Shown here: in pieces, positions 3,616-64,000 of the stretch
Position numbering within the stretch: position 1 is the stretch's first letter
Layout of the letters: each line of letters starts with the position of its first letter
From: an uncultured Phycisphaerales bacterium
Lineage (GTDB): Bacteria; Planctomycetota; Phycisphaerae; Tepidisphaerales; Tepidisphaeraceae
Reading direction: 5' to 3'
Assembly: GCA_963844715.1 (NCBI GenBank)
Contig: CAWJPJ010000004.1
Location: 32,001 to 96,000 of the forward strand
DNA: 64,000 nucleotides
Made by a program: the position numbers and the translations under genes
Notes under the pieces: generated by a model
What the model saw: the letters and a program-made list of their open reading frames with translations, nothing else
Databases searched by the model: none
What the model was told of the DNA's origin: nothing

Positions 3616-3719
3616 GAATCGAGTTTCCGCCGCCGGCAAGGATTGCGTCCCATAAACGCATGGCGGTGGCGTCAACATAAATAAGGTTTTCGCGGTCATA
3701 AAGTTGCGAGGAGCTTATC

Positions 3720-4454
3720 GTGAAGTTGCTCATTGCCGTGCCGGTTTATAACGAAATCAAGTACGTTGGTCACGTGCTGGACAAGATTAAGCATTTTTGG
3801 CCGGAAGTGTTAGTCGTGGACGACGGAAGCGACGATGGAACGGGACCGATGCTGGCGGCGCGGAGCGATATCCGGGTGATTCGGCACGGGAGCAATCGGG
3901 GATATGGGCAAAGCCTGATTGACGCGTTCGCCTTTGCGGATCGCGCGGGTTATGAGTGGGTTTTGACGATGGATTGCGATGAGCAGCACGAGCCGGAGAT
4001 GATCCCTGAGTTCATCAAGCACATTCAGACGGACAAATGGGATTTGATCAGCGGGTCGCGGTATTTGCATCCGCGGGGAGATGACGACCTGCCGCCGACG
4101 GACCGGCGGGCGATCAATGTGACGATCACTACAATTTTGAACGACCTTTTTAATCTGGGTTTGACGGACGCATTTTGCGGATTTAAGGCGCATCGGGTTT
4201 CGGGTTTGCGCAAGTTGCATCTGGATGTGGCGGGCTATGCATTTCCGGTGCAGCTCTGGCCGCAAGTGGCGGCGGCGAATCTGCGCGTGACGGAGCTTCC
4301 GGTGCGGCTGATCTACAATGATCCGACACGGCATTTCGGCGGCGAACTGGACGATGCGGGCATTCGGCTCAAGCACTATCTGCAAGTGCTGAACCGGGAA
4401 GTCACCAAACTCACCGACCGAACGCCGGAGCCGATTGGCTGCGGCTGCGAATAA
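3720..4454 (+). CDS. Glycosyltransferase family 2 (DPM-synthase-like)
   Basis: VPVYNE, VVDDGSDD, TMDCDEQH, SGSRY and TDAFCGFKA motifs. Confidence 0.9.
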   Translation: MKLLIAVPVYNEIKYVGHVLDKIKHFWPEVLVVDDGSDDGTGPMLAARSDIRVIRHGSNRGYGQSLIDAFAFADRAGYEWVLTMDCDEQHEPEMIPEFIKHIQTDKWDLISGSRYLHPRGDDDLPPTDRRAINVTITTILNDLFNLGLTDAFCGFKAHRVSGLRKLHLDVAGYAFPVQLWPQVAAANLRVTELPVRLIYNDPTRHFGGELDDAGIRLKHYLQVLNREVTKLTDRTPEPIGCGCE

Positions 4455-49043: not shown

Positions 49044-51197
49044 ATGGCAGAGGACACGACACAGCCGGCGACACTTGCCTGGGGGCCGAATGATAAACAT
49101 CGTCTGCTGAATACGCGGTTGCCGCGGGTGGATTTTCCGTTCAAGACTACGGGGGCGGCGAAATATTCATATGACGTAAAAGTTCCGGGGATGCTTTATG
49201 GGCGGATTTTGTGTTCGACTGTTTCCAAGGGGAAAGTGACGGCGCTGGATTTAACGCCGGCGATGAAAATCCCGGGTGTGAAGGCGGCGGTGGCGCGGGT
49301 GAATGTGGGCGGGTTGGTGCGGTTCGAGGGGGATCCGATCGCGGCGGTGGCGGCGGTTACGCCGGAGATTGCCGAGGATGCGATGCTGGCGATTCAGCTT
49401 ACGCTGGAGCCGGAGCCGTTTGTGGTGACGGCGGAAGATGCCATTAAAGAGGGGGCGCCGGCGGTTTATCCGAACGACGAACGCGTGCAGAACAATACGC
49501 GGTTGCAGAACGCGAGGGGGAGTCTGGATAAGGTCGCGGCGGCAATTCAAGCGGCGGACGTTACGCTGGACGCGGAATATCGCACGCCGATTTTGCATCA
49601 TTGTTGCCTGGAGACGCACGCGGTGGTTGTTGATTATCGCGGCGGGGAGACGGCGACGGTTTACTGCTCGACGCAAGGGACGTTTTCGATTCCGGGCGAT
49701 GCGGCGCGCACGCTGAATCTTGACGACAGTGATGTGGTGGGGATTGTGCAATATATGGGGGGCGGGTTTGGGTCTAAGGGCGGCATCGGCGTCGAGGGGC
49801 AACTTGCGTGCAAGCTGTCGCTGCAAGCGGGGGCGCCGGTGAAGATGGCTTTGCCGCGGCGGGACGAATTTTTGATGGCGGGGAACGGGCCGGGGAGCTG
49901 GCAGAAATTCAGCGCGGGGGCGAGTAAGGACGGGAAGCTGCTGGCGATGCAGATCGAGCAATATGCGCTGGGGGGGATTGGGCGCGGGAGTCTGACGGGG
50001 CAGCCTTACGTGTATCACGTTGATGAGGTTTACCGAAAGGCTGGATCGATCCATACGAATGAGGACGCCTCGCGGCCGCTGCGTGCGCCGGGGCATCCGC
50101 CGGCGTGTTTTGCTATGGAATCGTTCATGGATGAGCTGGCGTACAAGATCGGGATCGACCCGGTTGAGTTTCGGATCAACAATCTTCCTGCGGACGATCC
50201 GCACATTCGGCAGCTTCGGCGCGGGGCGAAGGAAATTGGGTGGGAACGGCGCAACGCGACGGCGGGGGCGACGGCTGGAGTGCTCAAGCGCGGGTTTGGG
50301 TGCGGGTGCGGGATTTGGGGCGGAGGGGGGCGGCCGCAGTGCGTGGTTGAAATTCATGTTGCGCGCGGCGGGGCGGTGACGGTTTCGTGCGGGTCGCAGG
50401 ATTTGGGGACGGGGACGCGGACTTATATGGTCGCCATCGCGGCGGAGGAATTGGGGCTGGAGATGGGCGATGTGCACGAGAAGATCGGGGATACGCGGTT
50501 GACGGATGCGAATTTTTCGGGCGGGTCATCGACGGCGCCGTCGCTTTCACCGGCGGTGAAAGACGCGGCGGTGAACGCGAAGGGGGCGATCGCGGCGATT
50601 GTCGCGCCGCTGCTCGGCGCGGGGCCGGAAGATTTGGTTTTTAGTGATCGGAAAATTTCCGCGAACGGGAAGTCACTGGAATGGTCGCAGGCTTGCGCGG
50701 CGCTGCCGGCGGCGGGGATTTCGGTGCGCGGGACGTTTCGGGCGGGGTTGTCGAGCGTGGGCACGCACGGGGCGGCGTTTGCGGAGGTGGAAGTCGATAC
50801 CGAGACGGGGCATGTTCGCGTGGTGCGGATTTTGGACGTGCAGGATTGCGGACTCCCGCTGAATCGGCTGGCGGTGGAGAGCCAGATCAATGGGGGGATG
50901 GTGCAGGGGATCGGGATGGCGCTGCTGGAAGGGCGGGTGATGGATTCCAATTTGGGCGTGATGGTGAATTCGAGTTTCATGGATTACAAGATCGCGGGTT
51001 GTTTGGAGGTGCCGGAGGAGATGCTTCCGCTGATTGACGACGACGATCCGCGGCAGATGGTGGTTGGAGTGGGGGAGCCGCCTTCGATTCCGCCGGCGGC
51101 GGCGATCGCCAACGCGATATTCAACGCATGCGGGGTGCGGGTGCGGCAGTTGCCAATCACGCCGGACAAAATCATCATGGGTTTGAGCAACGCATGA
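49044..51197 (+). CDS. Xanthine/aldehyde oxidoreductase molybdopterin subunit (PaoC/YagR-like)
   Basis: TGAAKY, GGGFGSK, RAPG, QDLGTG, QINGGMVQGIG and GVGEP. Confidence 0.92.
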   Translation: MAEDTTQPATLAWGPNDKHRLLNTRLPRVDFPFKTTGAAKYSYDVKVPGMLYGRILCSTVSKGKVTALDLTPAMKIPGVKAAVARVNVGGLVRFEGDPIAAVAAVTPEIAEDAMLAIQLTLEPEPFVVTAEDAIKEGAPAVYPNDERVQNNTRLQNARGSLDKVAAAIQAADVTLDAEYRTPILHHCCLETHAVVVDYRGGETATVYCSTQGTFSIPGDAARTLNLDDSDVVGIVQYMGGGFGSKGGIGVEGQLACKLSLQAGAPVKMALPRRDEFLMAGNGPGSWQKFSAGASKDGKLLAMQIEQYALGGIGRGSLTGQPYVYHVDEVYRKAGSIHTNEDASRPLRAPGHPPACFAMESFMDELAYKIGIDPVEFRINNLPADDPHIRQLRRGAKEIGWERRNATAGATAGVLKRGFGCGCGIWGGGGRPQCVVEIHVARGGAVTVSCGSQDLGTGTRTYMVAIAAEELGLEMGDVHEKIGDTRLTDANFSGGSSTAPSLSPAVKDAAVNAKGAIAAIVAPLLGAGPEDLVFSDRKISANGKSLEWSQACAALPAAGISVRGTFRAGLSSVGTHGAAFAEVEVDTETGHVRVVRILDVQDCGLPLNRLAVESQINGGMVQGIGMALLEGRVMDSNLGVMVNSSFMDYKIAGCLEVPEEMLPLIDDDDPRQMVVGVGEPPSIPPAAAIANAIFNACGVRVRQLPITPDKIIMGLSNA

Positions 51198-52195
51198 AAG
51201 CATTCGAGTGGGCAAATCCCGAGAGCGTTGAGGAGGCGGTCGAACTCCTTGCGGAGATCAAGGCGGAGGATGTCAACGACGGGCCACGGCCGATTTCGGG
51301 GGGGCAGGACCTTTTGACGACGATGAAGGAGCGGATTCTTGTCCCGAAGCGGGTGGTGAATCTGAAGACGATTTCGGGGCTGGATGGGATTGAATACGAT
51401 CCGGCGAAGGGGTTGAAAATCGGGGCGCTGGCGAAGCTTTGCGAAATTGAATCGCATGCGGACATTGTCAAGAATTATCCGGGGTTGGCGGAGGCGGCGC
51501 ATTCGATCGCGACGGTTCAATTGCGCAACATGGGGACGATTGGGGGGAATCTTTGCCAGCGGCCGCGGTGTTGGTATTTCAGGCTTCCGTATGTTGTTTG
51601 TCTGAAGAAGGGGGGCGACACGTGCTATTCGGAGCATGGGGAGAATAAGTACAACGCGATCCTGGGCGGGGGGCCTTCGTTTATCGTGCATCCGTCGGAT
51701 CTGGCGACGATGCTTACGGCGCTGGATGCGGTGGTCTCGGTCTCGGGACCGAAGGGGTCGCGCGAGGTTCCGATTGGGAAATTTTTCATTCTGCCTACGG
51801 AGGATGCGTCTCGGGAAAATGTTTTGGACGATGCGGAGATTGTGACAGGGGTTCAGATTCCGGCCTCGGCGTTTGCGGGCAGATCGACGTATCTGAAATT
51901 CAAGGAGCGGCTTTCGCTGGATTTTGCGATGGGTGCGGCGGCGGCGGCGGTTGAGCTTGCGCCGGATGGGACGGTTAAGCAGGCTCGCCTGGTGCTGGGA
52001 GCGGTGGCGCCGATTCCGTGGAGGGTGCCTCTGGCCGAGGCGGCGCTGGTTGGGAAATCTCTTAACGACGATTCGATTCGGGCGGCGGCGGAACTGGCGG
52101 TCCAGGGCGCCAAACCGCTGCAACACAATGCTTATAAAATCCTGCTGTCCAAGGCGTTGGTGCGGCGGGCGCTGGGGAGTTTGAAGACTGCCTGA
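51194..52195 (+). CDS. Xanthine/aldehyde oxidoreductase FAD subunit with 4Fe-4S insert (PaoB/YagS-like)
   Basis: GGQDL, QLRNMGTIGGNLCQRPRCWYFR...CLKKGGDTC, HPSD and GAVAPIPWR. Confidence 0.92.
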   Translation: MKAFEWANPESVEEAVELLAEIKAEDVNDGPRPISGGQDLLTTMKERILVPKRVVNLKTISGLDGIEYDPAKGLKIGALAKLCEIESHADIVKNYPGLAEAAHSIATVQLRNMGTIGGNLCQRPRCWYFRLPYVVCLKKGGDTCYSEHGENKYNAILGGGPSFIVHPSDLATMLTALDAVVSVSGPKGSREVPIGKFFILPTEDASRENVLDDAEIVTGVQIPASAFAGRSTYLKFKERLSLDFAMGAAAAAVELAPDGTVKQARLVLGAVAPIPWRVPLAEAALVGKSLNDDSIRAAAELAVQGAKPLQHNAYKILLSKALVRRALGSLKTA

Positions 52196-52207
52196 TGGAG
52201 CGATGCT

Positions 52208-52447
52208 ATGAGTGAGACGACTGCTCTCCATGTCATTCAGACGCCGTTTTGCGGGGATTTGCGCTCGAAGAAGTTCTTTTTATTGGATCGGATTGCGACG
52301 TCGGCGGAGGAATATCTGGACGCCAGCGAGCATTGTTGGTGCTATCATACTCAGCAGGTGGTGGGACCGGATGGGGAGATTGTTATGCCGGAGCGGTGCG
52401 TGCCGGGGCGAGGGTGCTATCGGTCGGCGCTGGATCGGAGGAAGTGA
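52208..52447 (+). CDS. Small Cys-rich hypothetical protein
   Basis: C..LRSK, CWC..T...GPDG and C...R.CY pattern; GGAG RBS; 12 bp after the FAD subunit stop. Confidence 0.65.
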   Translation: MSETTALHVIQTPFCGDLRSKKFFLLDRIATSAEEYLDASEHCWCYHTQQVVGPDGEIVMPERCVPGRGCYRSALDRRK

Positions 52448-52469
52448 TCGCGGTTGAATTTCAGTATGC

Positions 52470-52840
52470 GCTACTAAAGTCTTCGCGGGTTGCGGGTAAG
52501 ACCCCCACCCTAGCCCTCCCCCCGGGTACGGGGAGAGGGGAGAAGAGTGCGCGAGGCTTCGTTAAAATCTTTGCGGTTTTGGGGTAAGACCCCCACCCTA
52601 GCCCTCCCCCCGGGTACGGGGAGAGGGGAGAAGAGTGCGCGAGGCTTCGTTAAAATCTTTGCGGTTTGGGGATAAGACCCCCACCCTAACCCTCCCCCCG
52701 AGTACAGGGAGAGGGAAAAAAAAGTGCGCGATGCTTTGCTAAAATCTTTGCGGTTTGGGGGTAAGACCCCCACCCTTCGTGCCGAAACTGGCGGAAGGGG
52801 ACAGGGAGTGCTCCCCCCGAGTACGGGGAGAGGGGAAAAA
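52470..52840. repeat. REP-like hairpin tandem array (~89-bp period, four copies)
   Basis: TAAGACCCCCACCCTAGCCCTCCCCCCGGGTACGGGGAGAGGGGA plus near-identical linkers; the fourth copy carries a CGTGCCGAAACTGGCGGAA insert. Confidence 0.9.
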
Positions 52841-52891
52841 CAGTGGACGACCGTTGGACCTCGGCAAAGTAATTTCATTAGTGAGGCGATC

Positions 52892-53552
52892 ATGAACCTG
52901 ACACTCGTTTTAACGATTGCGTGCAGTCTGCTGGGGTCTTCGCCGATTTCGATTCGGTCCTCGACAACTGTGCGGGGCGATTATGTCGAAGGCGCGCACG
53001 GCCAGTGTCTTTGCTGGGCCTTGTCACTTCAACGGGGAAGTGATGACCACCGGGGGGGACGCGATTCTGGCTTGGCATGTGACATCGGGGACTTGGGGTG
53101 GGGTTGATCTTGCGGGGGTTCGGGCGATGGCGGCGGTGAGTTGTGAATCGAATCTTGCGGATGCGACGGCGGGGCGGCGGTCGGAAATTGTGATCGATAG
53201 CTCGGCTAGCAAGGCGCAATCCGCGGCGATGGTTTCGATGCTGCGATTTCGGATGGGCGAGGAATTGGGCGAGATCGGCAGCGTTCGTGCGGGGCGGATC
53301 GCGTTTGTTCATTACGGCCGGCAGTATCGCGTCAGCGCCGGCGGGTTTGGTGCGATGGACGTTCAGGGGATGCCTAACGATGAGTGCTGCAAGCAGCCGA
53401 ATTTGGTTTGGTATTCGCCGCTGATGCATCTGGATTGGCGGAAAGTTGGGTATACGACTACGGCCGAGTATTCGGCCGGGACGCTGACTGATCCGTGGGA
53501 GCGGGCTGACGAGAATGACGCGTTTTACGGAACGTTCTCGATCGCTCGCTGA
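52892..53552 (+). CDS. Secreted DUF1326-like protein; frameshift near 52990
   Basis: Signal peptide, VRGDYVE joining ARTASVFAGPCHFNGE, AILAWHV..G...GVDLAG and VWYSPL. Confidence 0.65.
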
Positions 53553-53910
53553 ATCCGGGTGGGGACCCGGTCTATTTCGTTGCCGGGGCTTTCGTCCAAT
53601 AAAAGATCGAATCTATTGAACCTGCCTGGGGGGCGCGGAGTTTTGGGCGGCTCATTTCCGGGCTGAATCGTTGGGAGGCGGCCGGTTCCATCCGATGAAT
53701 AATTTGATGTCCATGTCAACTCCATTTTACGGGTGGAGTGATGATGTGACACGAATCGTATTTGAATCGCGCGCCTGCTCCCTCCGGTCGCGCCGAAACT
53801 GGCTGAAAAGGATAGTGCGTGTTCCCCCGGATTACCTTTGGAGGGGGAAAAGGGCGCGTGGATATCAAATCGGGTCCGTGTGACACGGGAATTGGGACGC
53901 CGCAAATGGC

Positions 53911-56794
53911 TTGGCGCCTTTTGGGGAAGTTATTCGAAGCGGTTTAAAGAATAATCTGCGGAAGTTTTTGCCTCGAAGCCTTCAGGCGCGATTGATCGTC
54001 GCGCTGATTCTGGTGGCGGGGCCGATCCTGCTTTCGGCGGTGCTGTGGTTGGGCTGGCAATCGGCGCGGCTTGCCGAGTTGTCGGCGGATCAGCATATGG
54101 CGAATCAGGCGGCGTCGGTCGCGGATAACGTCGAGCGTTGGGACCACTACTTTGTGATGGCGCTGGAGAATCTGCGCGGGCAGCCGGACATTTTGAACAT
54201 GTATCCGCCGGACCAGATTCCGGTGCTTCAGCAGATGCAGAAGTCGTACGAGCGGCTGGCGATTGTGCGGGTGACCCGGGCGGACGGCATCAGCGTGGCG
54301 CGAACCGACGGCACGGCCCCGATGGACTACGGCGATCGCGATTGGTTCAAGGCGTGCATGGGGGGGCGCTCGGTCACGAGAGAAGCGCTGATCACCAAAA
54401 CCGGGCACAAGGCGGCGCTGAATTTTTCCATGCCGATTCTGGATGAGAAGGGGAAAATAGTCGGGGTGTTGTCGGCGGTCACCTATTTGACGTCGATGTC
54501 GGATGTGCTGGGGATTTCCGCGGGCGATCCCGGGGAGGAGATTTTTGTTGTCGACGAGCGGGGTCTGGCGCTGGCCGCGCCATTACTACAGAGGACCGAC
54601 AGTCTGACCGATCTGCGCGGCTCGCCGCCGGTTCAGCGATTGCTGCACGGGCAGGACGGGGCGATGGCATTTACGGATTCCTCCGGGACGGAATGGTTCG
54701 CGCAAGCGGTGAAGCTTTCCAACGGGTGGTCGATCGTCTGCCAGATCCCCAAACAGGCCGTCATCGCGCAAAGCAAGGAAATGATGCGCACGGCGTACGC
54801 GCTGGCGGTGTCGGCGCTGTTGTTCCTGGCGGGTTTGGGTGGGCTGGTCGCCAAAAAGATGACCCGTCCGATCCGCGAATTAACGGGGGCGGCGGACGAC
54901 CTGGCATGCGGAAACTGGTCGCGCCGCGTTCGCGGCGATGGGGCCGATGAATTGGGGCGGCTGGCGAGTTCATTCAACAAGATGGCGGGGCATCTGGAGG
55001 CGGCCTACCGGCAGGCGGAGGCGCGTTCGCTCGAGCTTCAGAAGGCGAACGAAGCGCTGCAAGCCAGCGAGGAGCGATATGCGCTGGCGATTCGCGGGGC
55101 CAACGACGGGCTTTGGGACTGGGATCTCAAGACGGGCAGGGTGCATTACTCGGCGCGGTGGAAGGAAATGCTGGGGTGCGAGGACGCGCAGATCGGGGAT
55201 TCTTTGCAGCACTGGATTAGCCGAGTGCATCCCGACGATTTGGAATCGATCCATACGGCGATCGCGGCGCATCGCGAACAGGTTACTCCGCACTTTGAAG
55301 TTGAACATCGTTTGTTGCACACGGACGGGCGTTATCGCTGGATGCTGGCGCGTGGAACTGCGGTTTGGGACGGGGCGGGGCAGGCGACTCGCATGGCCGG
55401 GTCGCTGACTGATGTCACGGCGCGGCGCGAGGCGGAGGAGCAATTGCTCGAGGATGCCCTGCACGAACGCGCTGACGGGGATGCCGAACCGCGTGCTCTT
55501 TTGCGATCGGCTGGAGCGGTCGCTGTCGCGGATGACGCGGGATCCGGATCACGCGTTTACGGTGCTTTTTCTGGACGTGGATCGGTTCAAGGGAATTAAC
55601 GACAGCCTGGGGCACGGGGTGGGGGACCAATTGCTGATCGCCTTTGCGCGGCGGATCAGTTCGTCGCTGCGCCCGAGTGACACGTTCGCGCGGCTGGGCG
55701 GGGATGAATTCACGATTTTGCTGGAGGACCCGCGCGAGCCGGACGACGCGGTCAGCGTCGCGACGCGAATTCTGAATGTACTGAAGGAGCCGTTCAATCT
55801 GGATTCGCACGAGGTGTTTATATCGACGAGCATCGGGATCGCGCACAGCGGGACGCGGTATTCGCGGCCGCAGGAAGTTCTGCGCGATGCGGACATCGCG
55901 ATGTATCGAGCCAAGGCCAAGGGGAAGAATTGCTACGAAGTCTTTGACGTGGGAATGCACACGCGGGCGGTGAAGCTGCTGCAGATGGAAAACGATTTGC
56001 GCCGGGCGATCGATCGGAAGGAATTTGAGCTTTTTTATCAGCCGATCATTCGCATGAACAGCGGGAAGGTTCGGGCGTTCGAGGCGCTGATTCGGTGGCG
56101 GCATCCGGTGCAGGGGTTGATTCCGCCTAACGACTTCATACCCATGGCGGAGGAGACGGGGCTGATCATTCCGATCGGGTGGTGGGTTTTGGAGCAGGCG
56201 TGCCTTCAGGCGGTGCAGTGGCACGCGATCCGGCCGGATCAGTTGATCGATATGAACGTGAATCTTTCGGGGAAGCAGTTTTCACAGCCGGACCTGGTGG
56301 ATCATGTGGTGAGAATTTTGAATGAAACCGGGCTGCCGGCGCAACATTTGATTCTGGAGATGACGGAGAGCGTGGTGATGGAGAATCCGGAGGCGACGGC
56401 GGCGACATTACGCCATCTGAAAGACCTCGGGGTGCAGCTGAACATCGACGATTTCGGGACGGGTTATTCTTCGCTGGCGCATTTGCAGCGGTTCCCGGTG
56501 GACACGATGAAGATCGACCGGTCGTTCGTGGCGCAGATGATTGAGCGGCCGGAGAACGCGGAGATCATCCGGACTATTGTGCATCTGGCGCATAGTCTGA
56601 ATATGAAGGTCACCGCCGAGGGGATCGAAAGTCCGGAGCAACTGGCACAGTTGGAATTGCTCAATTGCGAGAACGCTCAGGGGTTTCTTTTTTCGCGGCC
56701 GCTGGATAGCAAGTCGGCGACGGAGTTGCTGCGGCAGTGGTCGCCGGAGAACGCGGCGCGGCTTGTGGCGTCTCCGGCTACGTCGTCGATTTAA
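53911..56794 (+). CDS. Cache-HAMP-PAS-GGDEF-EAL diguanylate cyclase/phosphodiesterase; frameshift near 55465
   Basis: TM-Cache (DYGDRDWF)-TM, HAMP (DELGRLASSFNKM), PAS (DGLWDWDL, RVHPDD), RLGGDEF, FEALIRW, DDFGTGYSSL and AEGIE. Confidence 0.93.
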
Positions 56795-56839
56795 TCTGCG
56801 TCGGCGCACACACACCGGCGATGGGATCTGACGCGGGGA

Positions 56840-56873
56840 AATCGGAGTGATGGAAAAGCAGCCGAACTTTTTC
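56840..56873. repeat. Degenerate att-like copy related to the tRNA-Pro 3' end
   Basis: AATCGGAGTGA...GAACTTTT resembles AATCGGGGCGA...GAACTTTT at 58344; marks the switch to lower-GC sequence. Confidence 0.4.
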
Positions 56874-56975
56874 TGCGATTCTGCGCAGAGATCGTGGATT
56901 TGTGGATGAACGCTGCGTCAACTGCGGGAACTTGCATGTCGGTACAGAAAAAACGGGCAGTCGCATACCGAGAAC

Positions 56976-57716
56976 TCAAGGGCATTGGCGCTTTCCTTCC
57001 TCTACCATAAACATTCTCTTGCAGGCAGGACAGTAGAGGTAGTACTCGTAGTAATAGGTCTGCCCAGTTTTCGGCTTTTTGTCGCGTGGCATGCGTCGAA
57101 TAAGCGGCGTGGAGCATTCCCGGCATGGCGCGCCCTCGGCGAGCTTTGGCTCCGGCTGCTTCGCGGGCGCTGCCAGATTACTGAAGGCATTCTCCTGCTC
57201 CGGTTTCTCTTCATAACCGGGATCTGCCGACAGGTCTTTGCTTTTCAGCAATCGGATGGAGAGAGCATCGCATCGCTCATTTTCAGCATTTCCCGCGTGT
57301 CCTTTGACCCATTTGAACGCCACGCGATGGATCTGGCACAATTTCCACAACTCTCGCCACAAATCCGCGTTTATGACGGCCTTTTTTCCCCGATGCCAGT
57401 TCATTGCGCGCCACCGCTCTACCCATCCGTCCGACATGGCCTGCACAAGATACTTTGAGTCACTATACAGTGTCACATCGCAAGGTTCCTTTAGTATTTG
57501 GAGCCCGTGAATGGCAGCATAGACTTCCATCCGGTTGTTCGTGGTGCGCCGAAATCCACCGAAAAGCTCTCGGCGCCGGTCCCCATAGATGAGGATCACC
57601 CCATAGCCGCCGGGACCCGGATTCGGCTCTGCCGCCCCGTCGGTGTAGATGACCACATTTTTTCGGCCCTCGCTCATCGGGGTTGTCATGGTGGGTCTAG
57701 GATTTTCGATGTGCAA
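56976..57716 (-). CDS. rnhA: Ribonuclease HI with C-terminal Zn-ribbon extension
   Basis: YTDGA..PNPGPGG, TTNNRME, YSDSKY, NADLW and WVKGHAGNAENERCD; tail CRECSTP...CPAC. Confidence 0.92.
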   Translation of the reverse strand: MHIENPRPTMTTPMSEGRKNVVIYTDGAAEPNPGPGGYGVILIYGDRRRELFGGFRRTTNNRMEVYAAIHGLQILKEPCDVTLYSDSKYLVQAMSDGWVERWRAMNWHRGKKAVINADLWRELWKLCQIHRVAFKWVKGHAGNAENERCDALSIRLLKSKDLSADPGYEEKPEQENAFSNLAAPAKQPEPKLAEGAPCRECSTPLIRRMPRDKKPKTGQTYYYEYYLYCPACKRMFMVEEGKRQCP

Positions 57717-57826
57717 TGTACTGACACGCCGGGAGGAAAAAAAGCTATCGGTTCAAATCCCGTCGCATGGTCGACGCGCGCCGTCCTGCGCGGGTAAAGC
57801 GGCGCCGCGGTTTTCATACAGTTGTG

Positions 57827-58188
57827 TCAAACTGCCCGTCGATCCAGCCCATTGATCAGGCCCGAAAGCATGCGGGCGATTTCTTCGAGCTTGTTTTTGA
57901 GGTCCGAGTGTGCATCGGGTTTGAGTAAGCCTTGCGCGCCGCCAGTTCCGGCAATGGTACGCATTCCTGCGCGCTGCCCCGTGCGATACCGAAGAAATTT
58001 CGTCTGTCGGCCTTGGTGAATCGTCCGTTGCCTTCAGCAATGTTGGCGGCGATGGAGAGTGCAGCACGGCTCAGCTGATCACCCAGGAAGAACTAACCGC
58101 GCGGCAGGTTGCGGGTGATTGTACATATCTCGTCGGCGAAACTGATCGCCCTTTGATAGACGAGTAGTTTCTCGAATGCGAACGCCAT
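57827..58188 (-). pseudogene. Four-helix-bundle (23S rRNA IVP/Avd-like) protein with in-frame TAG and a frameshift
   Basis: Manual translation MAFAFEKLLVYQRAI...[48 protein letters not shown]...LEEIARMLSGLINGL. Confidence 0.85.
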
Positions 58189-58207
58189 TCGTTGGATCGT
58201 AACCTAA

Positions 58208-58328
58208 GAAAGTAGAGAGGAGAAAGTAGACCGCAGGAGAGCTTGGCCTGTTACCCCCGTTGCCGCTCTAACGCAGGTATTGCCCCCCTGCTCTCCTTTC
58301 TACTTTCCACGCCTCTCCTGCTCTATTT
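58208..58328. repeat. Purine/pyrimidine imperfect inverted repeat upstream of the four-helix-bundle gene
   Basis: GAAAGTAGAGAGGAGAAAGTAGA... paired with ...CTCTCCTTTCTACTTTC...CTCTCCTGCTCTATTTT. Confidence 0.6.
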
Positions 58329-58343
58329 TTCGCTGCCGCGAAA

Positions 58344-58378
58344 AATCGGGGCGACAAGACACCAGTTGAACTTTTCCT
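58344..58378. repeat. att-like direct repeat of the tRNA-Pro 3' end
   Basis: ATCGGGGCGACA (58345-58356) is identical to 60001-60012; continues AGACACCAGTTGAACTTTTC (RGDKTPVELF). Confidence 0.65.
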
Positions 58379-58520
58379 CGTTCTTTGCACTAAAATGTCG
58401 GGCCTCAAGCCTACTGGCAGTGGGCTTCGGGAATTAATTCAAGGCATTACGATATTGCCGTCTCTAGAGGTTGGCTTGCCAGAAGAGGTAGGCTGACGGC
58501 TCTTTTGCGTCGACCAAGTT

Positions 58521-58795
58521 TCAAAAGAGCAATCCCTGCGTGTCCTTTTTGGGATAGAATAGGCCGATGACAACCCAGGAACTAGGATGTGCTAAGATCG
58601 TTCCCACAATGAAACGAGTGTCTTTGTCGGGACCACAAAGCTCGTCCAGGAACTTCTGCTTAACTTGCTTCGCTGCCGCTTCAGAATCCGTCCCCTTGTC
58701 GCGCAGTCGCCAGTAGAGTGCGCCAACTTCCCAATCTTCGATCATCATTTGGTGACCCTTGCACCGACCATCATCACATTCGAACTTGTATTTCC
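58521..58795 (-). pseudogene. C-terminal fragment of a conserved hypothetical protein of DUF488-associated loci
   Basis: YKFECDDGRCKGHQMMIEDWEVGALYW...FIVGT...WVVIGLFYPKK; in-frame stop just upstream and no N-terminal part. Confidence 0.55.
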
Positions 58796-58934
58796 CCTTG
58801 AGTGGGTTGGACGCGGGTTGCCCTCATCGGTGGCATTATATCAAGCCTCGCGTGTCTCTGGCGATGCCCGCGAACTTCTGTTATCGGCTGAATTCAAGCG
58901 CATAGTCGGGTTACGCCGATGCTCAAGGAGCATC

Positions 58935-59276
58935 ATGCCAGCAAAGCGAATTCAACTCCGTCGATCCCGTGGATGGAGAATGCCTCCGAACGTGCGCAAG
59001 GTGGACCGTACGACCAAATGGGGTAATCCCTTTAGGATTGGTCAAATCGCGTCGCACCCTCTGACAAAGAGGTCTGTTCACGTCGCAAACGCTGAAATAG
59101 CCGTCGCGCTTTTTGCGGAATATCTGCACACCCGTGAGGGAGTCGCGCTCCTTGACATTGCCAGAAACGAGCTTCGCGGGAAAGATTTAGCGTGTTGGTG
59201 CAAGCCCGGCAATGCGTGCCACGGCGATGTGTTGCTACGCGCCATCTATGAGCCGGCGGCCCGACAAGCTGCGTAA
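58935..59276 (+). CDS. DUF4326-family protein
   Basis: RIQLRRSRGWRMP, VDRTTKWGNPF and ELRGKDLACWC...CHGDVL; AAGGAG RBS. Confidence 0.88.
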   Translation: MPAKRIQLRRSRGWRMPPNVRKVDRTTKWGNPFRIGQIASHPLTKRSVHVANAEIAVALFAEYLHTREGVALLDIARNELRGKDLACWCKPGNACHGDVLLRAIYEPAARQAA

Positions 59277-59279
59277 TCC

Positions 59280-59837
59280 CTATTGGATTGCCACGATTGT
59301 CGCCTCTGTCTGATCCGCAACCAAGTCTGCAATCACGCTCCGGTGGCAGTCTTCGTGGAGCCTTTCATAACATAGTAGCGCCGTTGGAATGCGTCGCGAA
59401 CTCTCTGCCAACCGTGCGATTTCGGGCATCATGGTTTCAACCGCCCATGCTCGAAAGCGATCGGCAAATCGGTGAAAATCGCCCGAGGCATGTAGCTCGT
59501 CTCGCTGCTCCGCAGTGGAGCCTAGCATTGACCAAGCTTGGTACTCGATCCGATTCGCTTTGCACAATGCGCGCAGAGATGCGGCACGAAAATCTGGTTT
59601 TCGTGAGGTTGGACGTTCGCGGATATCCGCGATTGCCTTCACTCCTTGGTCAAGTAAAACGCTAATCAGCCCGTCACCGTCGCGTCGCTCGTAACCGACT
59701 GTATAGAGCGTGACGTTTTTGCCACTCCGAATCAATTTCGTATATCCGGTATCGGTCACCTTCGAGGCAACGCCGAAAGAGGCGAGTTTCTTGGCGTTCG
59801 CTGCTTTGCGCTGTTGAATGTCTGAGAAGAGGTCCAT
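59280..59837 (-). CDS. DUF488-family protein
   Basis: LYTVGYE, ADIRERPTSRKPDF and ALLCYE...CHRSVIA. Confidence 0.88.
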   Translation of the reverse strand: MDLFSDIQQRKAANAKKLASFGVASKVTDTGYTKLIRSGKNVTLYTVGYERRDGDGLISVLLDQGVKAIADIRERPTSRKPDFRAASLRALCKANRIEYQAWSMLGSTAEQRDELHASGDFHRFADRFRAWAVETMMPEIARLAESSRRIPTALLCYERLHEDCHRSVIADLVADQTEATIVAIQ

Positions 59838-60001
59838 TGAACACCTGCGGGGTTGTGTAACTTAAAGGGGTTGGCCGAGCCCCATGTTGGCGTAGCATGG
59901 GCCTCATCCGAATGCGTTTTTGAACGGATTCTAGCGAAAAGTTCGAATCCCGTCACAACCCCAAAGAAAAACCCCTTGTTATGCAAGGGGTTAGGCAATC
60001 A

Positions 60002-60075
60002 TCGGGGCGACAGGATTCGAACCTGCGGCCTTCTGGTCCCAAACCAGACGCTCTACCAAGCTGAGCTACGCCCCG
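60002..60075 (-). tRNA. tRNA-Pro (anticodon TGG)
   Basis: CGGGGCG/CGCCCCG acceptor stem, TAGCTCAGCTTGGTAGAGC D-arm, TCTGG-TTTGGGA-CCAGA anticodon arm and GGTTCGAATCC; CCA not encoded. Confidence 0.96.
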
Positions 60076-60172
60076 GGCTTTTATAGTTTATCGTGGAAGT
60101 GAGGCGGGGGGCAAACGGGGGGCGTTTCTCAAATGGCCCTACGGATGGCCCTTCGACGTCGCTCAGGCCGGG

Positions 60173-61261
60173 CTATCCGTAGGCTTTGGCGGCGTGGAAC
60201 TGACATACTAAATCGAAGACTTTGCCGGCGTGGCGCTTGGCTACGGCTTCGTCTTTTAGCATGGCGATGTTTAGGGTGTCGCAGGTGAATTCGGCTTCGA
60301 GGTTGCTTTCTACGCCGCGACCCATGCCTTCTAGGATTAGGAAATCGGCGTCTTGGGCGGCTTCATTTAATGCTGGGTCGATTTGACTTAAATCAATGAG
60401 GGGCTCGCCGGTGCCTGTGGCTACTTGGGTGATGGGTAGGGTTGCGAAGGATGGCTCGATTGCCAGAACTTTTGGCCACCAGGCTTGGACGTCTTCGATG
60501 GTCATGTCGTTGAGGGTGGGGCGGGAATTGGCGGCCATGACGACTGGGGTTCCGCGCTGGGCCAGCCAGCGGATCATGGGGAGGGCGCCGAGGAGAAAAT
60601 CGCTGCCGGCGTTGTCGATGAAGAAGAGGGCCTTTTTGTGTCTGGGGCCTTTTAGGAGGCGGTCGTGGAGTGAGCGAAAATCGTCGATGAGCCAGGGGTG
60701 GGCGCGGAGTGAATCTCTGGTGGCGAAAAAATCTGGGCTGGAGTTTAGGAATTTTTTGGCGGTGGCATCGGCGCCCATGTCGAAGATGTTTCCGGCGAAC
60801 ACGCCTTGGATGATGGCGCGGAATTGATCTTCGCCGGTTAGGGCGTCGAGCTGGGCGCATACTTTGGGCAAGAGGGGGAGCATGCCGGCGTTTTCGCGAT
60901 TTTTCAGATCGATGAAGGGATCGACGAAGCCGTACTTGCGGAGGAGGCCGTCGCGCCAGGCGTCTAGGGTTAGGATGGTGACGCGGCCTTGGCTATCGGG
61001 GGCGGCACCGAAGGCGTCGAAAGTTTTATAGAACTCGACGCGGCAGGCGGCGGCTCGGGTTTGGGCGGTTTCTCTTGATTCGCCGCGGGCTGCGGCGGCG
61101 TCGATGCCGAGGGCGAGCATTGTGTTCAAGTGGCGTTTGAAGAATTCTAGCCAATGGGCTCGGCCCCAGGCATCGACGGAGAGGTCCCATGAGCAGGCGA
61201 CGTATTTGGTCGGATCGGCGATTTTACAGAAGGGGACTGGCCGGGATGAGGTGAGCGTCAT
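60173..61261 (-). CDS. DUF89/ARMT1-like damage-control phosphatase (PanK4-type)
   Basis: DPFIDLKNREN, AGNIFDMG, FIDNAGSD, ANSRPTLND and EGMGRGVESN. Confidence 0.85.
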   Translation of the reverse strand: MTLTSSRPVPFCKIADPTKYVACSWDLSVDAWGRAHWLEFFKRHLNTMLALGIDAAAARGESRETAQTRAAACRVEFYKTFDAFGAAPDSQGRVTILTLDAWRDGLLRKYGFVDPFIDLKNRENAGMLPLLPKVCAQLDALTGEDQFRAIIQGVFAGNIFDMGADATAKKFLNSSPDFFATRDSLRAHPWLIDDFRSLHDRLLKGPRHKKALFFIDNAGSDFLLGALPMIRWLAQRGTPVVMAANSRPTLNDMTIEDVQAWWPKVLAIEPSFATLPITQVATGTGEPLIDLSQIDPALNEAAQDADFLILEGMGRGVESNLEAEFTCDTLNIAMLKDEAVAKRHAGKVFDLVCQFHAAKAYG

Positions 61262-61291
61262 TTCAAAATCTCAGGACAAAATACTGAATTA

Positions 61292-61395
61292 GCCACAGAT
61301 GGAAATCAGATGGACACGGATAATAGAGTTGCCAGTTGTTAGTTGCCAGTTGCCAGTGAAAATCCATCTGTGCGAATCGGTGGGCCATCTGTGGC
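61292..61395. repeat. Inverted-repeat element with a nested GTTGCCA heptamer run
   Basis: GCCACAGATGG (61292-61302) and CCATCTGTGGC (61385-61395) enclose AGTTGCCAGTTGTTAGTTGCCAGTTGCCAGT (61327-61357). Confidence 0.8.
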
Positions 61396-61640
61396 GACAA
61401 ATCTTTTTTACCAGGCGTAGGCTTCGGGGGCTTCGGCGCCGGGGCCTGGCCAGATTTCGTTTAGGCGGGCTAGGGTGGGGGCGTTGAGGGTGAGATCGAC
61501 GGAACGGAGGACGCTGGTCATTTGGTCTATGGTGCGGGGGCCGATGATGGGGGCAGTGATGGCGGGGTTTTGGATGAGCCAGGCGAGGGCGACGTTGGCG
61601 GGGGATTCGTTCAATTCGCGGCAGAGTGCTTCCCAGGCTT

Positions 61641-62470
61641 CTAGGGCCTGTCTGATGAATCCAAAATCCTGAAATAGCGACGGATCATGGCGAGCTTGGC
61701 CATGGCCTGAAAGTTCACCGCCAGTTTCTCGTAACGCGTGCCCAGGCGGCGATTCTCCTTCATCCAATTCACGCAACGCTCCACCACGTTCCGTCGGCGA
61801 TACGCCTTGCGATCAAAGTTCTCCTGCGGCGGCTGATTCGATTTCGCCGGGATCACCGCTTGGATTCGGTGGCGACGCAGCCATCGCCGCACATTTCCGT
61901 AACTGTATCCCTTGTCGCCCGCCAGCCTCCTGGGGCGACGACGGCGGCGACCGATGCGCATCGCGTTCATCACCGGCTCCACGTACCGGCTCTCGTGGCA
62001 TTGGCCGGCGCTGGCCTCGACGGCGAGCGGAACTCCCTGGCCGTCAGTAACCAGGTGGAGCTTGCTGCCCCACCCGCCTCGGCTGCGGCCCAACGCGTGA
62101 TCCGCCGGTTCTTCCGGGGCGGTTTTGATTTTCTGGCTCCGGCGGCGGATCGACTGGCTCGCACATTGGTGCCGTCGATGCACCACAGGTCCCAGTCGAT
62201 TCGTCCTTGCTTGTCCAACCTCATCTGCAGCCGCTGGAGGATTCGATCAATCGTTCCGTCCTTTCTCCAGCGGTTGAAGCGGTCGTAGACGCTTTGCCAT
62301 CTGCCGTAACGTTCGGGCATCTCGCGCCATTGAGCGCCCGAGTGCAGAATCCAGAACATGCCGTTGAGCGTGGTGCGGTGGTCGTTCCACTGCCCGCCGC
62401 GCTTGCCGTTGCCGGGCAGCAGATCGCCGATCAACTCGTACTGCTCATCCGTGAGCTCATAACGTCGCAT
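61641..62470 (-). CDS. IS5-family transposase in two overlapping frames (shift near 62125)
   Basis: RYELTDEQ, GAQWREMPERYGRWQSVYDRFNRW and IDGT in frame A; GRSRGGWGSKLH, GDKGY and YRRRNVVER...RYEK in frame B. Confidence 0.93.
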
Positions 62471-62530
62471 CCGTGACACCTCGTCTGAAAACCGCTATTT
62501 ATAACCAAAAGCGATTCATCAGACAGGCCC
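61644..62530 (-). mobile_element. IS5-family insertion sequence (IS427-like), 887 bp
   Basis: Perfect 18-bp terminal IR GGGCCTGTCTGATGAATC / GATTCATCAGACAGGCCC; TA duplication within a CTAG target. Confidence 0.95.
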
Positions 62531-63288
62531 TAGCTGGGGGCGGAGTTTTTGGATTCTTTTTTGAAGGGTTTCCTCGGCGCGGCGGCCCTGGTCGATTTTT
62601 TGCAGGACGCCGCCGAGGAGGCCGCCGTCGAGTGGGCTCCAGGGGATGACGCCTACGCCGTAGGCTCGGGCGGCGGGGAGGACTTCCAATTCCACGGTGC
62701 GGCAGGCGAGGCTGTATTTGCTTTGCTCGCTGACGAGTCCCAGGAAATTGCGGTGTCGGGCGGTCTCGCAAGCGGTGGCGATGTGCCAGCCGGCGAAATT
62801 GCTGCTGCCGACGTAGAGGATTTTTCCTTGCTGGACGAGGAGTTCCATGGCTTGCCAGATTTCGTCCCATGGGGTTTGGCGGGAGATGTGGTGCATTTGA
62901 TAGAGGTCGATGTAGTCGATCTTCAGGCGGCGGAGGCTGTCGTCGCAGCAGCGGCGGATTTTGGCGGCGCTGAGGCCTCGGGCCATGTTTATGTCGCCGG
63001 GGAGGACGGACATGTCGGCGAATAGCTTGGTGGCGAGAACGGTTCGCTCGCGGCGGTGGCCGCCTTGGGAGAACCAGTTTCCCAGAATCTGTTCGGTGAC
63101 GCCTTTGCCTTTTTGGCGGCCGTAGACGTCGGCGGTGTCGAAGAAATTGATGCCGAGATCGAGGGCCTTGTCCATGATGGCGTGGGATTCGGATTCGGGG
63201 GTGAAGGGGCCGAAGTTCATTGTGCCGAGGCAGAGGTGGGAGACTTTTAAGCCGGTGCGGCCTAGGGTGGTGTATTGCATGGAAAAAT

Positions 63289-63342
63289 CCGAATGACGAA
63301 ATCCGAATGACGAATCAATGCTCGAATGACTGAATGACCGAA
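63289..63342. repeat. GAATGAC heptamer-like repeat cluster
   Basis: CCGAATGACGAAATCCGAATGACGAATCAATGCTCGAATGACTGAATGACCGAA immediately upstream of the AKR start. Confidence 0.8.
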
Positions 63343-63353
63343 AGGATGCGCGC

Positions 63354-63572
63354 TCACAACTCGTCAGGGGATTTTCGGACCGTTTTGCCGCGGCGATTGG
63401 CTAGGCGGGCCTTGGCGGCTAGTTTTTCCAAAGAGTTCTGGGAGCTTGCCAGGGTTTTGTCCCATTTCAGTTCGCCGTCAATATCCTCGAGCAATTGGTC
63501 CGCCAATTCGTCCTGGGCGGGCTTGGACAAGTGTGCGGCTTTCGCAAAGGCTTTTTCAAGGGATGCGGTCAT
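63354..63572 (-). CDS. Small hypothetical protein, putative antitoxin-like
   Basis: MTASLEKAF.....LSKPAQDELA..LLEDI..E.KWD......LEKLA..A pattern, like small proteins that usually precede RelE/ParE-type toxins. Confidence 0.55.
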   Translation of the reverse strand: MTASLEKAFAKAAHLSKPAQDELADQLLEDIDGELKWDKTLASSQNSLEKLAAKARLANRRGKTVRKSPDEL

Positions 63573-63664
63573 GGGTGACTCCGAGGCCAATCCTACGCCG
63601 TTGTGCCAGGTCGATCAATCTTATTTGTGGCGTAGCAATTGGCGCGGGAGGTAAAATCCCGAAT

Positions 63665-64000
63665 GTGAACTCTTTTCGATCTCGGTTGCTTGATGGTCTG
63701 GCGGTGATTTCATTGTTGCTGTGTGGGGCGATGATCGCGGGTTGGATCGTCGGCGCAATTCATCCTTTTACGTTGCGATTAATATCGAGGCGGGAGCGCA
63801 CGGTTTTTGCGGGATTCGACGGGCGGATATTTGAAATTGCCGGGCAGGGTGTGAAGGTTTCGATTGGATCGAATTTATATGGAACCGACACGGGGACACT
63901 CGGTGAATTTTGGACGACGTACCATGGAAAGCGCAAGGGAGGAATCACATTTTTTCCGGCATATTATTTTGACGGGTGGCTGGGTTTCGGGCGGGGATGG
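63665..64000 (+). CDS. Hypothetical membrane protein (3' partial)
   Basis: Open frame from GTG 63665 to the edge: NSFRSRLLDGLAVISLLLCGAMIAGW..., resembling a family expanded in Phycisphaerae. Confidence 0.55.
   Translation, partial: MNSFRSRLLDGLAVISLLLCGAMIAGWIVGAIHPFTLRLISRRERTVFAGFDGRIFEIAGQGVKVSIGSNLYGTDTGTLGEFWTTYHGKRKGGITFFPAYYFDGWLGFGRGW

Follow-up and report, generated by a model that had tools for sequence, protein, structure and literature searches.

This study concerns a 64,000-nucleotide stretch of the genome of an uncultured Phycisphaerales bacterium (assembly GCA_963844715.1, contig CAWJPJ010000004.1, positions 32,001 to 96,000), hereafter the window, and a small gene array that lies in it behind a tRNA-Pro(TGG) gene. 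The array occupies 3.1 kb (56839-60001) and comprises two blocks. Block 1, next to the tRNA, encodes a DUF488 protein, a DUF4326 protein and the C-terminal remnant of a third protein, and block 2 encodes a four-helix-bundle protein with a leader region and an RNase HI with a zinc ribbon (Table 1). This gene content, proposed in an earlier first-pass annotation made from the letters alone, agrees with Pfam, PADLOC and NCBIfam matches. At the distal end of each block stands a copy of a short site. Each copy finishes with 11-15 bases that duplicate the 3' end of tRNA-Pro, whereas the preceding bases, at least 20 of them, are not derived from a tRNA. The annotation had also described the region as free of an integrase, and no PF00589 or PF00239 match occurs in the window's part of its contig (C4). 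In addition, the Pfam, PADLOC and NCBIfam matches include no phage gene between 56839 and 60001, such as would mark the site as a prophage attR.

Table 1. Features of the array behind tRNA-Pro(TGG), listed from the tRNA outwards
Feature	Position	Strand	Basis and remarks
tRNA-Pro(TGG), array anchor	60002..60075	-	ARAGORN; Rfam tRNA 71.5 bits; 3' end at 60002
Conserved segment after the tRNA	59910..60001	-	Terminator-like hairpin ~59973-59996; read from sequence
Truncated tRNA-like 3' end GTTCGAATCCCGTCACAACCCCA joined to GCGAAAAG	59941-59964	+	Inside segment 59910..60001
DUF488 protein, PDC-M19A-like (block 1)	59280..59837	-	Pfam PF04343 E 9e-21; PADLOC PDC-M19A E 6e-28
DUF4326 protein (block 1)	58935..59276	+	Pfam PF14216 E 1.7e-22
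PDC-M19B-like C-terminal remnant, 75 aa (block 1)	58521..58748	-	PADLOC PDC-M19B E 1.4e-19
att-like site copy A_b, ends block 1	58342..58397	-	On tRNA strand: arm, GAAAAGTTCAACTGGTGTCTTGTC, tail GCCCCGATT; repeat search and profile
Leader of the four-helix-bundle cassette	58189..58341	-	Hairpin TTTTTCGCGGCAGCGAAAAA, words ATAGAGCAG...AGTAGA
Four-helix-bundle gene (TIGR02436, Avd-like; block 2)	57827..58188	-	In-frame TAG 58093-58095; translations
T-arm-like word GTTCAAATCCCGTCGCA	57751-57767	+	Repeat search; between four-helix-bundle and RNase H genes
RNase HI with C-terminal zinc ribbon (block 2)	56976..57716	-	Pfam RNase_H E 2.6e-39; NCBIfam ribonuclease HI 188 bits
Decayed site copy A_c	56839..56895	-	Arm GAACTTTTTCTGCGATTCTGCGCAGAGATC and tail (TCGGAGTGAT; CACTCCGATTT) kept, centre lost; alignment

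The repetition of the tRNA end inside the array is clear. On the + strand, ATCGGGGCGACAGGA at 60001-60015 consists of the final bases of tRNA-Pro(TGG) plus one, and a repeat search finds 14 of its 15 bases in the same orientation at 58345-58359 (ATCGGGGCGACAAGA), as the first-pass annotation had noted. An exact 12-mer of the tRNA end occurs seven times in the 4.55-Mb genome, namely at four tRNA-Pro-type 3' ends, at 58345 and at two stray positions elsewhere. With two strays per 9.1 million strand positions, a co-oriented match less than 2 kb from the tRNA is very unlikely to arise by chance, and the 58345 copy lies 1.6 kb behind tRNA-Pro in the same orientation. The copy continues into ...CACCAGTTGAACTTTTC, the conserved part of a site family, and a profile built from 135 copies in other genomes, with this genome left out, recovers it (A_b) at E 1.9e-14. 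Scans over this genome and its relatives show that the motif is not a random word. It would be very surprising if the locus were an ordinary small tRNA island without meaningful internal repeats, its resemblances being due to chance; for the 58345 site this is refuted by the profile match and by a reversed 24-mer control pattern, which is found in 0 of 141 genomes of the family. What speaks for chance is that the outer copy at 56840 and the T-arm-like words discussed below are individually weak, and that one member of that word family, at 59040-59056, falls within coding sequence and is probably accidental.

Base composition delimits the same region. Between 56900 and 60000 the G+C content is 0.544, within the lowest 1.5% of the genome's 3.1-kb segments, and the GC skew is -0.02. 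The flanks have values of +0.23 and +0.26, and there the skew is independent of gene direction. The 3.1-kb island is therefore compositionally foreign. The change in composition is located at 56839-56895, in accord with the AT-richer composition that had been reported from about 56840, and it is here that a degenerate motif had been proposed. The arm, the tail and the boundary position of this outer copy, A_c, can be recognised, its tail CACTCCGATTT being of a common type, but the copy is decayed and weak when taken alone (8.7 bits, E 7.3 genome-wide, 12th best match). At the genome-wide rate, the chance of such a score on that strand within 3.3 kb behind the tRNA is about 0.004. We accept A_c as a decayed copy because it is co-oriented and stands exactly at the compositional boundary. 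It forms the outer end of the array, with the stop of a GGDEF-EAL gene 45 nt further on, and contigs from peat match 56864-56894 within it. As a separate observation, the + strand of 50000-64000 has a GC skew of +0.2 to +0.35 whatever the gene direction, interrupted solely by the island (57000-60000) and by an insertion sequence (IS; 61600-62600). The latter is of the IS5 type (61641-62479, - strand), has its DUF4096 and DDE_Tnp_1 portions in two frames that overlap, and lies 1.6 kb from tRNA-Pro on the side opposite the array.

The site is about 33 bases long and consists of AAAAGTTCAACTGGTGTCYTGTC followed by a tRNA-Pro-like tail, RCYCCGATT. A scan of all tRNA genes of the genome for 3'-end repeats led to a second locus on contig C6, where tRNA-Pro(CGG) (973286-973362) is followed 1.9 kb on by a site reading GAAAGTTCAACTGGTGACTTGTCACCCCGATTT, compared with AAAAGTTCAACTGGTGTCTTGTCGCCCCGATTT in the window, and 5.2 kb beyond the tRNA by the third copy of the genome. 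Under the profile from other genomes these two copies score E 7e-12 and 2e-8; the interval from the tRNA to the nearer copy carries SDR and TetR genes, and an integrase is absent. Degenerate copies, with no tRNA-Pro call nearby, occur at C8:388515-388556 (E 8e-5; G000:C8:388500-388557) and at G000:C5:185148-185189 (E 0.011). The C8 copy is followed by a recurring left-end word, GATTTGATGGGACGAAA, that is also present behind tRNA-Pro(TGG) in the sister genome G001.

The site is widespread among relatives and beyond. With up to two mismatches allowed, the 24-mer GGAAAGKTCAACKGGTGWCTTGTC is present in 30 of the 141 family genomes and in 18 of 76 genera; one unpublished genome (G004) is counted solely in tallies such as this one. 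An exact-pattern scan of one genome per species returned 94 stretches, mostly from metagenome-assembled genomes (MAGs) labelled Phycisphaerae/Phycisphaerales, Tepidisphaerales, Pirellulales/Pirellulaceae, Planctomycetia or Gemmatales-type, with Fimbriiglobus, Blastopirellula and Rubripirellula also among the labels. Four of the 94 are labelled Binatus, Acidobacteria, Alphaproteobacteria and Nitrospiraceae, and may reflect binning errors. The nine bases behind the searched word, ACCCCGATT, are 64-97% conserved per position across 138 distinct copies; the tail, although it lay outside the search pattern, reaches 77-97% per position. It imitates tRNA-Pro in its acceptor strand and discriminator base. 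The arm on the upstream side divides into subfamilies, the window type being GATTTCNGNGCAGAAAACGCA, and short-read contigs of run X1 from other contexts match just 58343-58378 and diverge at both ends. A literature search, with subscription journals and supplements outside its reach, found no paper that contains the word GTTCAACTGGTGTC or names the site. The first-pass annotation had also pointed to serine recombinases ending in RGDKTPxELF. A coding reading of the site (RGDKTPVELF) was rejected, as this frame is open over the 274 nt covered in just 4% of the 138 copies, like other frames.

Near-identity over 33 nt across classes would also fit direct constraint on a functional signal unrelated to recombination, for example in protein binding, termination or tRNA-like processing, that is carried along with accessory genes, with the arrays built by homologous recombination between copies and by duplication, and two short local hairpins are indeed predicted in most copies. 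However, the site matches no Rfam family at E up to 1 in the window or up to 0.1 in three array loci, and its folding is no better than that of shuffled sequences. The orientation of the site is fixed relative to the tRNA while the adjoining genes point both ways, and a signal of this kind gives no reason for the strict link to the tRNA-Pro 3' end or for a tail that mimics it. We consider this explanation improbable.

In other loci, arrays reach six site copies, and 43 of 45 adjacent pairs of distinct sites are co-oriented, at a median spacing of 1471 nt (interquartile range 1.0-2.5 kb, range 100-4938 nt). Of the 94 loci, which come to about 70 once duplicates and loci lacking flanks are set aside, 20 have a co-oriented tRNA-Pro (tgg, cgg or ggg) within 6 kb upstream of the site, and none has a tRNA-Pro that lies downstream or inverted relative to it. 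The upstream pattern is also seen in 6 of the 14 loci of the array set. The cargo of the blocks is unrelated from one to another, including glyoxalases, methyltransferases, TetR and AraC regulators, DinB, RibD_C, NmrA and DJ-1 proteins, toxin-antitoxin parts and lectins, with many proteins that belong to no family; when the open reading frames (ORFs) of all loci were clustered, no family occurred in more than eight loci. A Pfam scan of 131 array ORFs gave no integrase or resolvase and six IS-type transposase matches. A tyrosine-recombinase profile, which recovered all of the 21 domains of this genome used to build it, had no match in 6409 six-frame ORFs (~1.0 million residues) of 108 loci, and in five further well-assembled genomes no PF00589 match was found within ~70 kb of the listed motif copies.

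These recombinase searches also bear on a different origin, in which full prophages or integrative elements with their own integrases hit tRNA-Pro and subsequent deletions left only cargo and attR as scars, so that nothing in the arrays is self-mobile. A viral contig (L181), the sole viral match, has the site at the edge of phage tail genes, at the end of a prophage-like stretch with tail and unknown genes, as a prophage attR would be; whole phages would therefore use the site. No integrase is present on the stretch of this viral piece that was examined. The window array is visibly decaying, and tandem accretion followed by decay is a route that PMC5704250 documents for cis-mobilizable elements (CIMEs) and that a preprint (bioRxiv 10.1101/2020.12.28.424599) documents for island remnants in Prochlorococcus. 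However, the 108 loci contain not even a fragment of a tyrosine recombinase in their ~1.0 million six-frame residues, the 131 scanned array ORFs include no phage structural genes, and the blocks are short and tightly sized. Moreover, the same four-helix-bundle cassette with the same left and right boundaries is found in different classes, which random deletions would not give. Scars of this kind are, in our judgement, a rather unlikely source of the arrays.

The blocks of the window recur elsewhere with breakpoints at the site, which supports the first-pass claim that the motifs bound small blocks. For block 1, a 2872-nt peat-metagenome contig from another study (run X5, record 9) carries 58363-59973 at ~95% identity. 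Towards the tRNA it passes a diverged terminator and reaches a tRNA-Pro-type end; in the opposite direction it enters a motif tail of a different type (…TCGGAGTGACAAGA), beyond which the flank is unlike that of the window. At 58792/58793 the peat contig has 520 extra letters that correspond approximately to the missing part of the M19B-like gene, indicating that the window copy has been truncated there by a deletion of ~520 bp; what is left at 58521-58748 is the last quarter of the protein (profile positions 191-267 of 269). For block 2, the RNase H gene shares 84.4% DNA identity over 752 nt with a gene of another genus (L104) that lies ~0.8 kb from a site copy; for comparison, the neighbouring ARMT1-like housekeeping protein has only 58-74% protein identity to its orthologues in the family. 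Cassettes with a four-helix-bundle gene are found again in Phycisphaerae and Pirellulaceae, and their layout is constant, namely a tail, a leader of 135-155 nt (hairpin, ATAGAGCAG…AGTAGA), a gene of 120 aa, 27-32 nt and the next site. A similar leader, which in the window contains an inverted repeat (58208-58223 / 58292-58307, repeat search), stands behind motif tails in L106, L147, L109, L090, L086 and L077, and L106 harbors an intact relative of the gene (TIGR02436 E 2e-26). As for function, the idea that the cargo acts on nucleic acids holds only in part; block 1 resembles, by its PADLOC matches, a candidate phage-defence pair.

The window array itself is decaying: the outer site has lost its centre, a stop interrupts the four-helix-bundle gene, and only part of the M19B-like gene is left. 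The array is probably no longer active. A short-read contig of run X1, which may be the sample of origin, keeps the TAG of the four-helix-bundle gene and adds one G behind 57933; this extra letter removes the apparent frameshift near 57933, which is probably an assembly error. Short-read contigs likewise have CG behind 57774, and both this and the G behind 57933, absent from the window, are probably small assembly indel errors.

Direct comparison of the locus among close relatives is limited by their distance. ARMT1-like orthologues occur in 28 of 41 related genomes, and a nearby tRNA-Pro(tgg) is found only in two genomes of the same genus, which at 70-74% protein identity are too distant for block-by-block comparison. 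The tRNA-Pro(TGG) locus of G001 carries another cassette and a decayed arm, and that of G002 has no recognisable site. Reads were represented by the assembled Logan short contigs of eight runs, a form of data that cannot reveal rare junctions. Among the Logan contigs, none spans the region in full and none has a joint at which precisely one block is skipped; neither the lack of such joints nor the parts left uncovered in the peat runs counts for or against movement. In runs X7 and X10, one contig each has the joints 56894/58196 and 58241/60001, with sides of 31 and 27 letters; these contigs probably derive from another organism with a miniature unit and are given little weight.

Between the tRNA and block 1 lies a segment of ~110 nt, made up of the tail, a terminator and an inverted truncated tRNA end, that is kept in other genera. 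The stretch 59910-60001 has 78-86% identity over 78-113 nt to L075, L076, L078, L080, L102 and L148, where its counterparts stand behind either a motif copy or the 3' part of a tRNA-Pro. In the window the segment stands behind the intact tRNA, and in L075, L076 and L148 behind tRNA-Pro fragments at the head of the array. Two T-arm-like words had also been counted among the dividing motifs of the region. They are present at 57751-57767 and 59941-59957 on the + strand, opposite to the tRNA, but they are not copies of the site, and the 59941 word belongs to the conserved ~110-nt segment; no tRNA of this genome matches either word past the T loop. The inverted fragment looks like the arm GCGAAAAG joined at the T loop to the end of another tRNA, and may point to another, related type of site on the opposite strand. 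Separately, L118 contains at ~3650-3739 (- strand), after a site copy, a perfect palindrome of two inverted AAAAGTTCAAATCTCGTCAGC copies, a word of the same kind as that at 59935-59957 of the window, which suggests a second, related site type as well.

On balance, the evidence favors the interpretation of 56839-60001 as two integrase-less cassettes that entered behind tRNA-Pro(TGG) by serial site-specific integration, with a recombinase encoded elsewhere, and that are now decaying. The comparative evidence supports the first-pass idea of an array accreted from non-autonomous units, whereas we infer the enzyme, its supply in trans and any movement that still takes place. Judged by its sequence, the site would be a recombination site of the attP/attR type. 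Its centre, GGTG-TCYTGT-CACC, is a short dyad around six bases and could fit the core of a tyrosine-recombinase site with a 6-7-bp overlap, and the conserved span of ~33-40 bp might equally fit the site of a large serine recombinase. The corresponding part of the tRNA is …AATCCTGTC-RCCCCGA. Strand exchange within or close to TCYTGTC, with the TCCTGTC-RCCCCGA region of the tRNA as partner, would insert a circular cassette behind the tRNA, and the cassette's own tail would rebuild the tRNA end as the new acceptor strand; because the tail becomes the acceptor strand of the tRNA, it would have to mimic tRNA-Pro. The arm and the old tail would be left at the far end of the cassette, and repeated rounds would stack cassettes, with older ones pushed outward. 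As the enzyme is absent from the arrays, it would act in trans, supplied perhaps by a phage, another element or the host.

Several observations weigh against this interpretation. No recombinase for the site was identified, and no circular or empty-site junction appears among the assembled short contigs, which cannot show rare ones. In the window, the outer copy A_c does not attain genome-wide significance. Across loci, tRNA-Ile takes the place of tRNA-Pro upstream in two cases and tRNA-Asp, tRNA-Thr and tRNA-Leu do so in single cases; the genes of the blocks point both ways; and the sequence behind the tail is not one conserved arm and falls into several recurring left-end types. In L078 and L080 the ~110-nt terminator/inverted-tRNA segment stands behind the outermost motif copy, which the rule that the newest unit lies next to the tRNA fails to explain. 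In addition, at half of the 24 loci compared, the tail and the acceptor strand of the local tRNA are not the same. The 12 loci at which they agree, among them 3 of the 9 whose tRNA has a rarer acceptor, speak for the interpretation. Tails of partly local and partly foreign origin fit a model of strand exchange beside the tail combined with exchange between loci. Finally, many of the genomes are MAGs, and relatives are not independent. Two individual loci are worth recording here in their own right. In L132 (5870-6040), tRNA-Pro(CGG) has an unusual acceptor, CAGCCCGA, repeated in the tail of the adjoining site, which lies only 52 nt (a terminator hairpin) behind the tRNA in a near-empty array. 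In L089 (425-490), two head-to-head site copies have their tail region in common, the arrangement expected of an inversion or of recombination between inverted sites.

The arrays resemble several known systems without coinciding with any of them. Tycheposons, as described in a preprint (Hackl et al., bioRxiv 10.1101/2020.12.28.424599), are tRNA-anchored islands of Prochlorococcus, with 937 integrase-carrying elements. They share with the present arrays the tRNA anchor, tandem units split by partial tRNAs, a presumed displacement of older units by newer ones, remnants, and adaptive or defensive cargo. However, tycheposons are defined by their own integrase, and none is found in or near the 108 loci. 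The repeat described here is not a mere partial tRNA, as it combines a conserved non-tRNA arm with an 11-15-nt tRNA tail, and unit size is lower (median 1.5 kb). CIMEs, in the account given by PMC5704250, which refers to Pavlovic 2004 and Bellanger 2011 on accretion of CIMEs and integrative and conjugative elements (ICEs), have no integration genes, keep attL and attR, and are mobilised by the integrase of a neighbour or helper. The att-flanked units without integration genes seen here are comparable, but CIMEs are single decayed ICEs or integrative and mobilizable elements beside a functional one, whereas here up to six tiny units stand without a functional partner nearby and a single site is common to a phylum. 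Co-oriented repeats of the tRNA 3' end thus bound the units as in tycheposons and CIMEs, and an integrase, whether in the element or in an adjoining functional element, does not accompany them.

The attC sites of integron cassettes consist of imperfect inverted repeats, R''-L'' and L'-R', through which a single strand folds into a long hairpin. Six site copies folded as DNA together with their flanks formed no attC-like hairpin (z -2.05 to +1.63 against shuffles, stems of 4-7 bp); the array is therefore not an integron. The word GTTCAAC in the site fits the RYYYAAC word of attC, and its partner arm was not seen in these sites. Integron cassette arrays include clusters of attC sites lacking integron-integrases (CALINs), described by Cury et al. 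2016 (PMC4889954) as having no integrase nearby. The present arrays resemble them in their small, diverse cassettes of mostly unknown function and in a single site type held in one orientation. In contrast, the anchor here is tRNA-Pro and not an attI beside intI, no tyrosine recombinase is near, gene direction varies and a cassette may contain as many as two or three genes. The first-pass term 'integron-like' is thus apt for the logic of the array but not for its site fold or gene direction.

Xer-dependent modules offer a further parallel: IMEXs (integrative mobile elements exploiting Xer) insert at dif, and pdif modules occur on Acinetobacter plasmids with sites of alternating orientation. 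They share with the present arrays small cargo between short conserved sites and the lack of a recombinase of their own, with host recombinases presumed to act. However, their sites are dif-like and lie at dif or on plasmids, whereas those described here mimic a tRNA end and are co-oriented. Two canonical dif patterns gave no dif-like word in this genome. A dif site has an 11-6-11-bp layout and is recombined by XerC/XerD; the core of the present site is the short dyad GGTG-TCYTGT-CACC. In Kono 2011 (PMC3025954), dif prediction is reported to have failed for Planctomycetes. 'dif modules' are also named in PMC10132070.

Beyond the window, we tentatively raise the possibility of a cassette system common to the phylum Planctomycetota, similar to integrons in its working but different in construction, with tRNA-Pro as insertion point, a 33-nt tRNA-mimicking site, a recombinase encoded off the array and cassettes exchanged between classes. 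Within such a system, the recombinase may be a conserved host enzyme, such as one of the Xer type. If this holds, small cassettes with cargo such as defence candidates, Avd-like four-helix-bundle genes, regulators and detoxification enzymes would be taken up, piled behind tRNA-Pro and passed between classes. Stacked islands at tRNA genes are already known and are usually ascribed to elements that bring their own integrase. Here, one short site stays near letter-for-letter the same from Phycisphaerae to Pirellulales and divides more than 40 small blocks of unrelated genes, with no recombinase nearby. Should the blocks move, integrons would have a counterpart, another cassette-capture system of independent construction, in a phylum whose gene flow is poorly understood; should they be static, the arrays would still be a clear archive of the successive invasions of a single tRNA. 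The interest thus rests on the phylum-wide site, of which the window array is a decaying example. The site provides a handle for finding cassettes, cataloguing their cargo and fishing for the recombinase, and could yield a tool for site-specific integration in Planctomycetes, which are hard to engineer.

One integrase of this genome, of 415 aa (G000:C8:920583-921830), was considered as the recombinase and rejected, as it belongs to a 5.5-kb element at tRNA-Met. Nine of the 11 genomes with a copy of at least 80% identity also carry the site, a count confounded by assembly quality and kinship. The element itself (G000:C8:920483-926027, L194-L198) has 93-96% DNA identity across genomes of different genera, and its integrase 95-98% protein identity in six other genomes. 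Such identity is far above the housekeeping level, which indicates recent spread.

Two further tRNA loci of this genome, both on contig C6 and outside the window, show unusual structures. At G000:C6:558826-559900, a 5' fragment of tRNA-Pro(CGG) precedes tRNA-Pro(GGG), behind which lie two tandem units of 289 bp and a third, diverged one; in every unit, part of a GIY-YIG-like ORF is joined to the final two-thirds (3' side) of tRNA-Pro(CGG). At G000:C6:952626-956065, 27 tRNA calls (one of undetermined type) lie on a single strand within 3.5 kb and double many tRNAs of the genome, which suggests a phage or mobile tRNA array.

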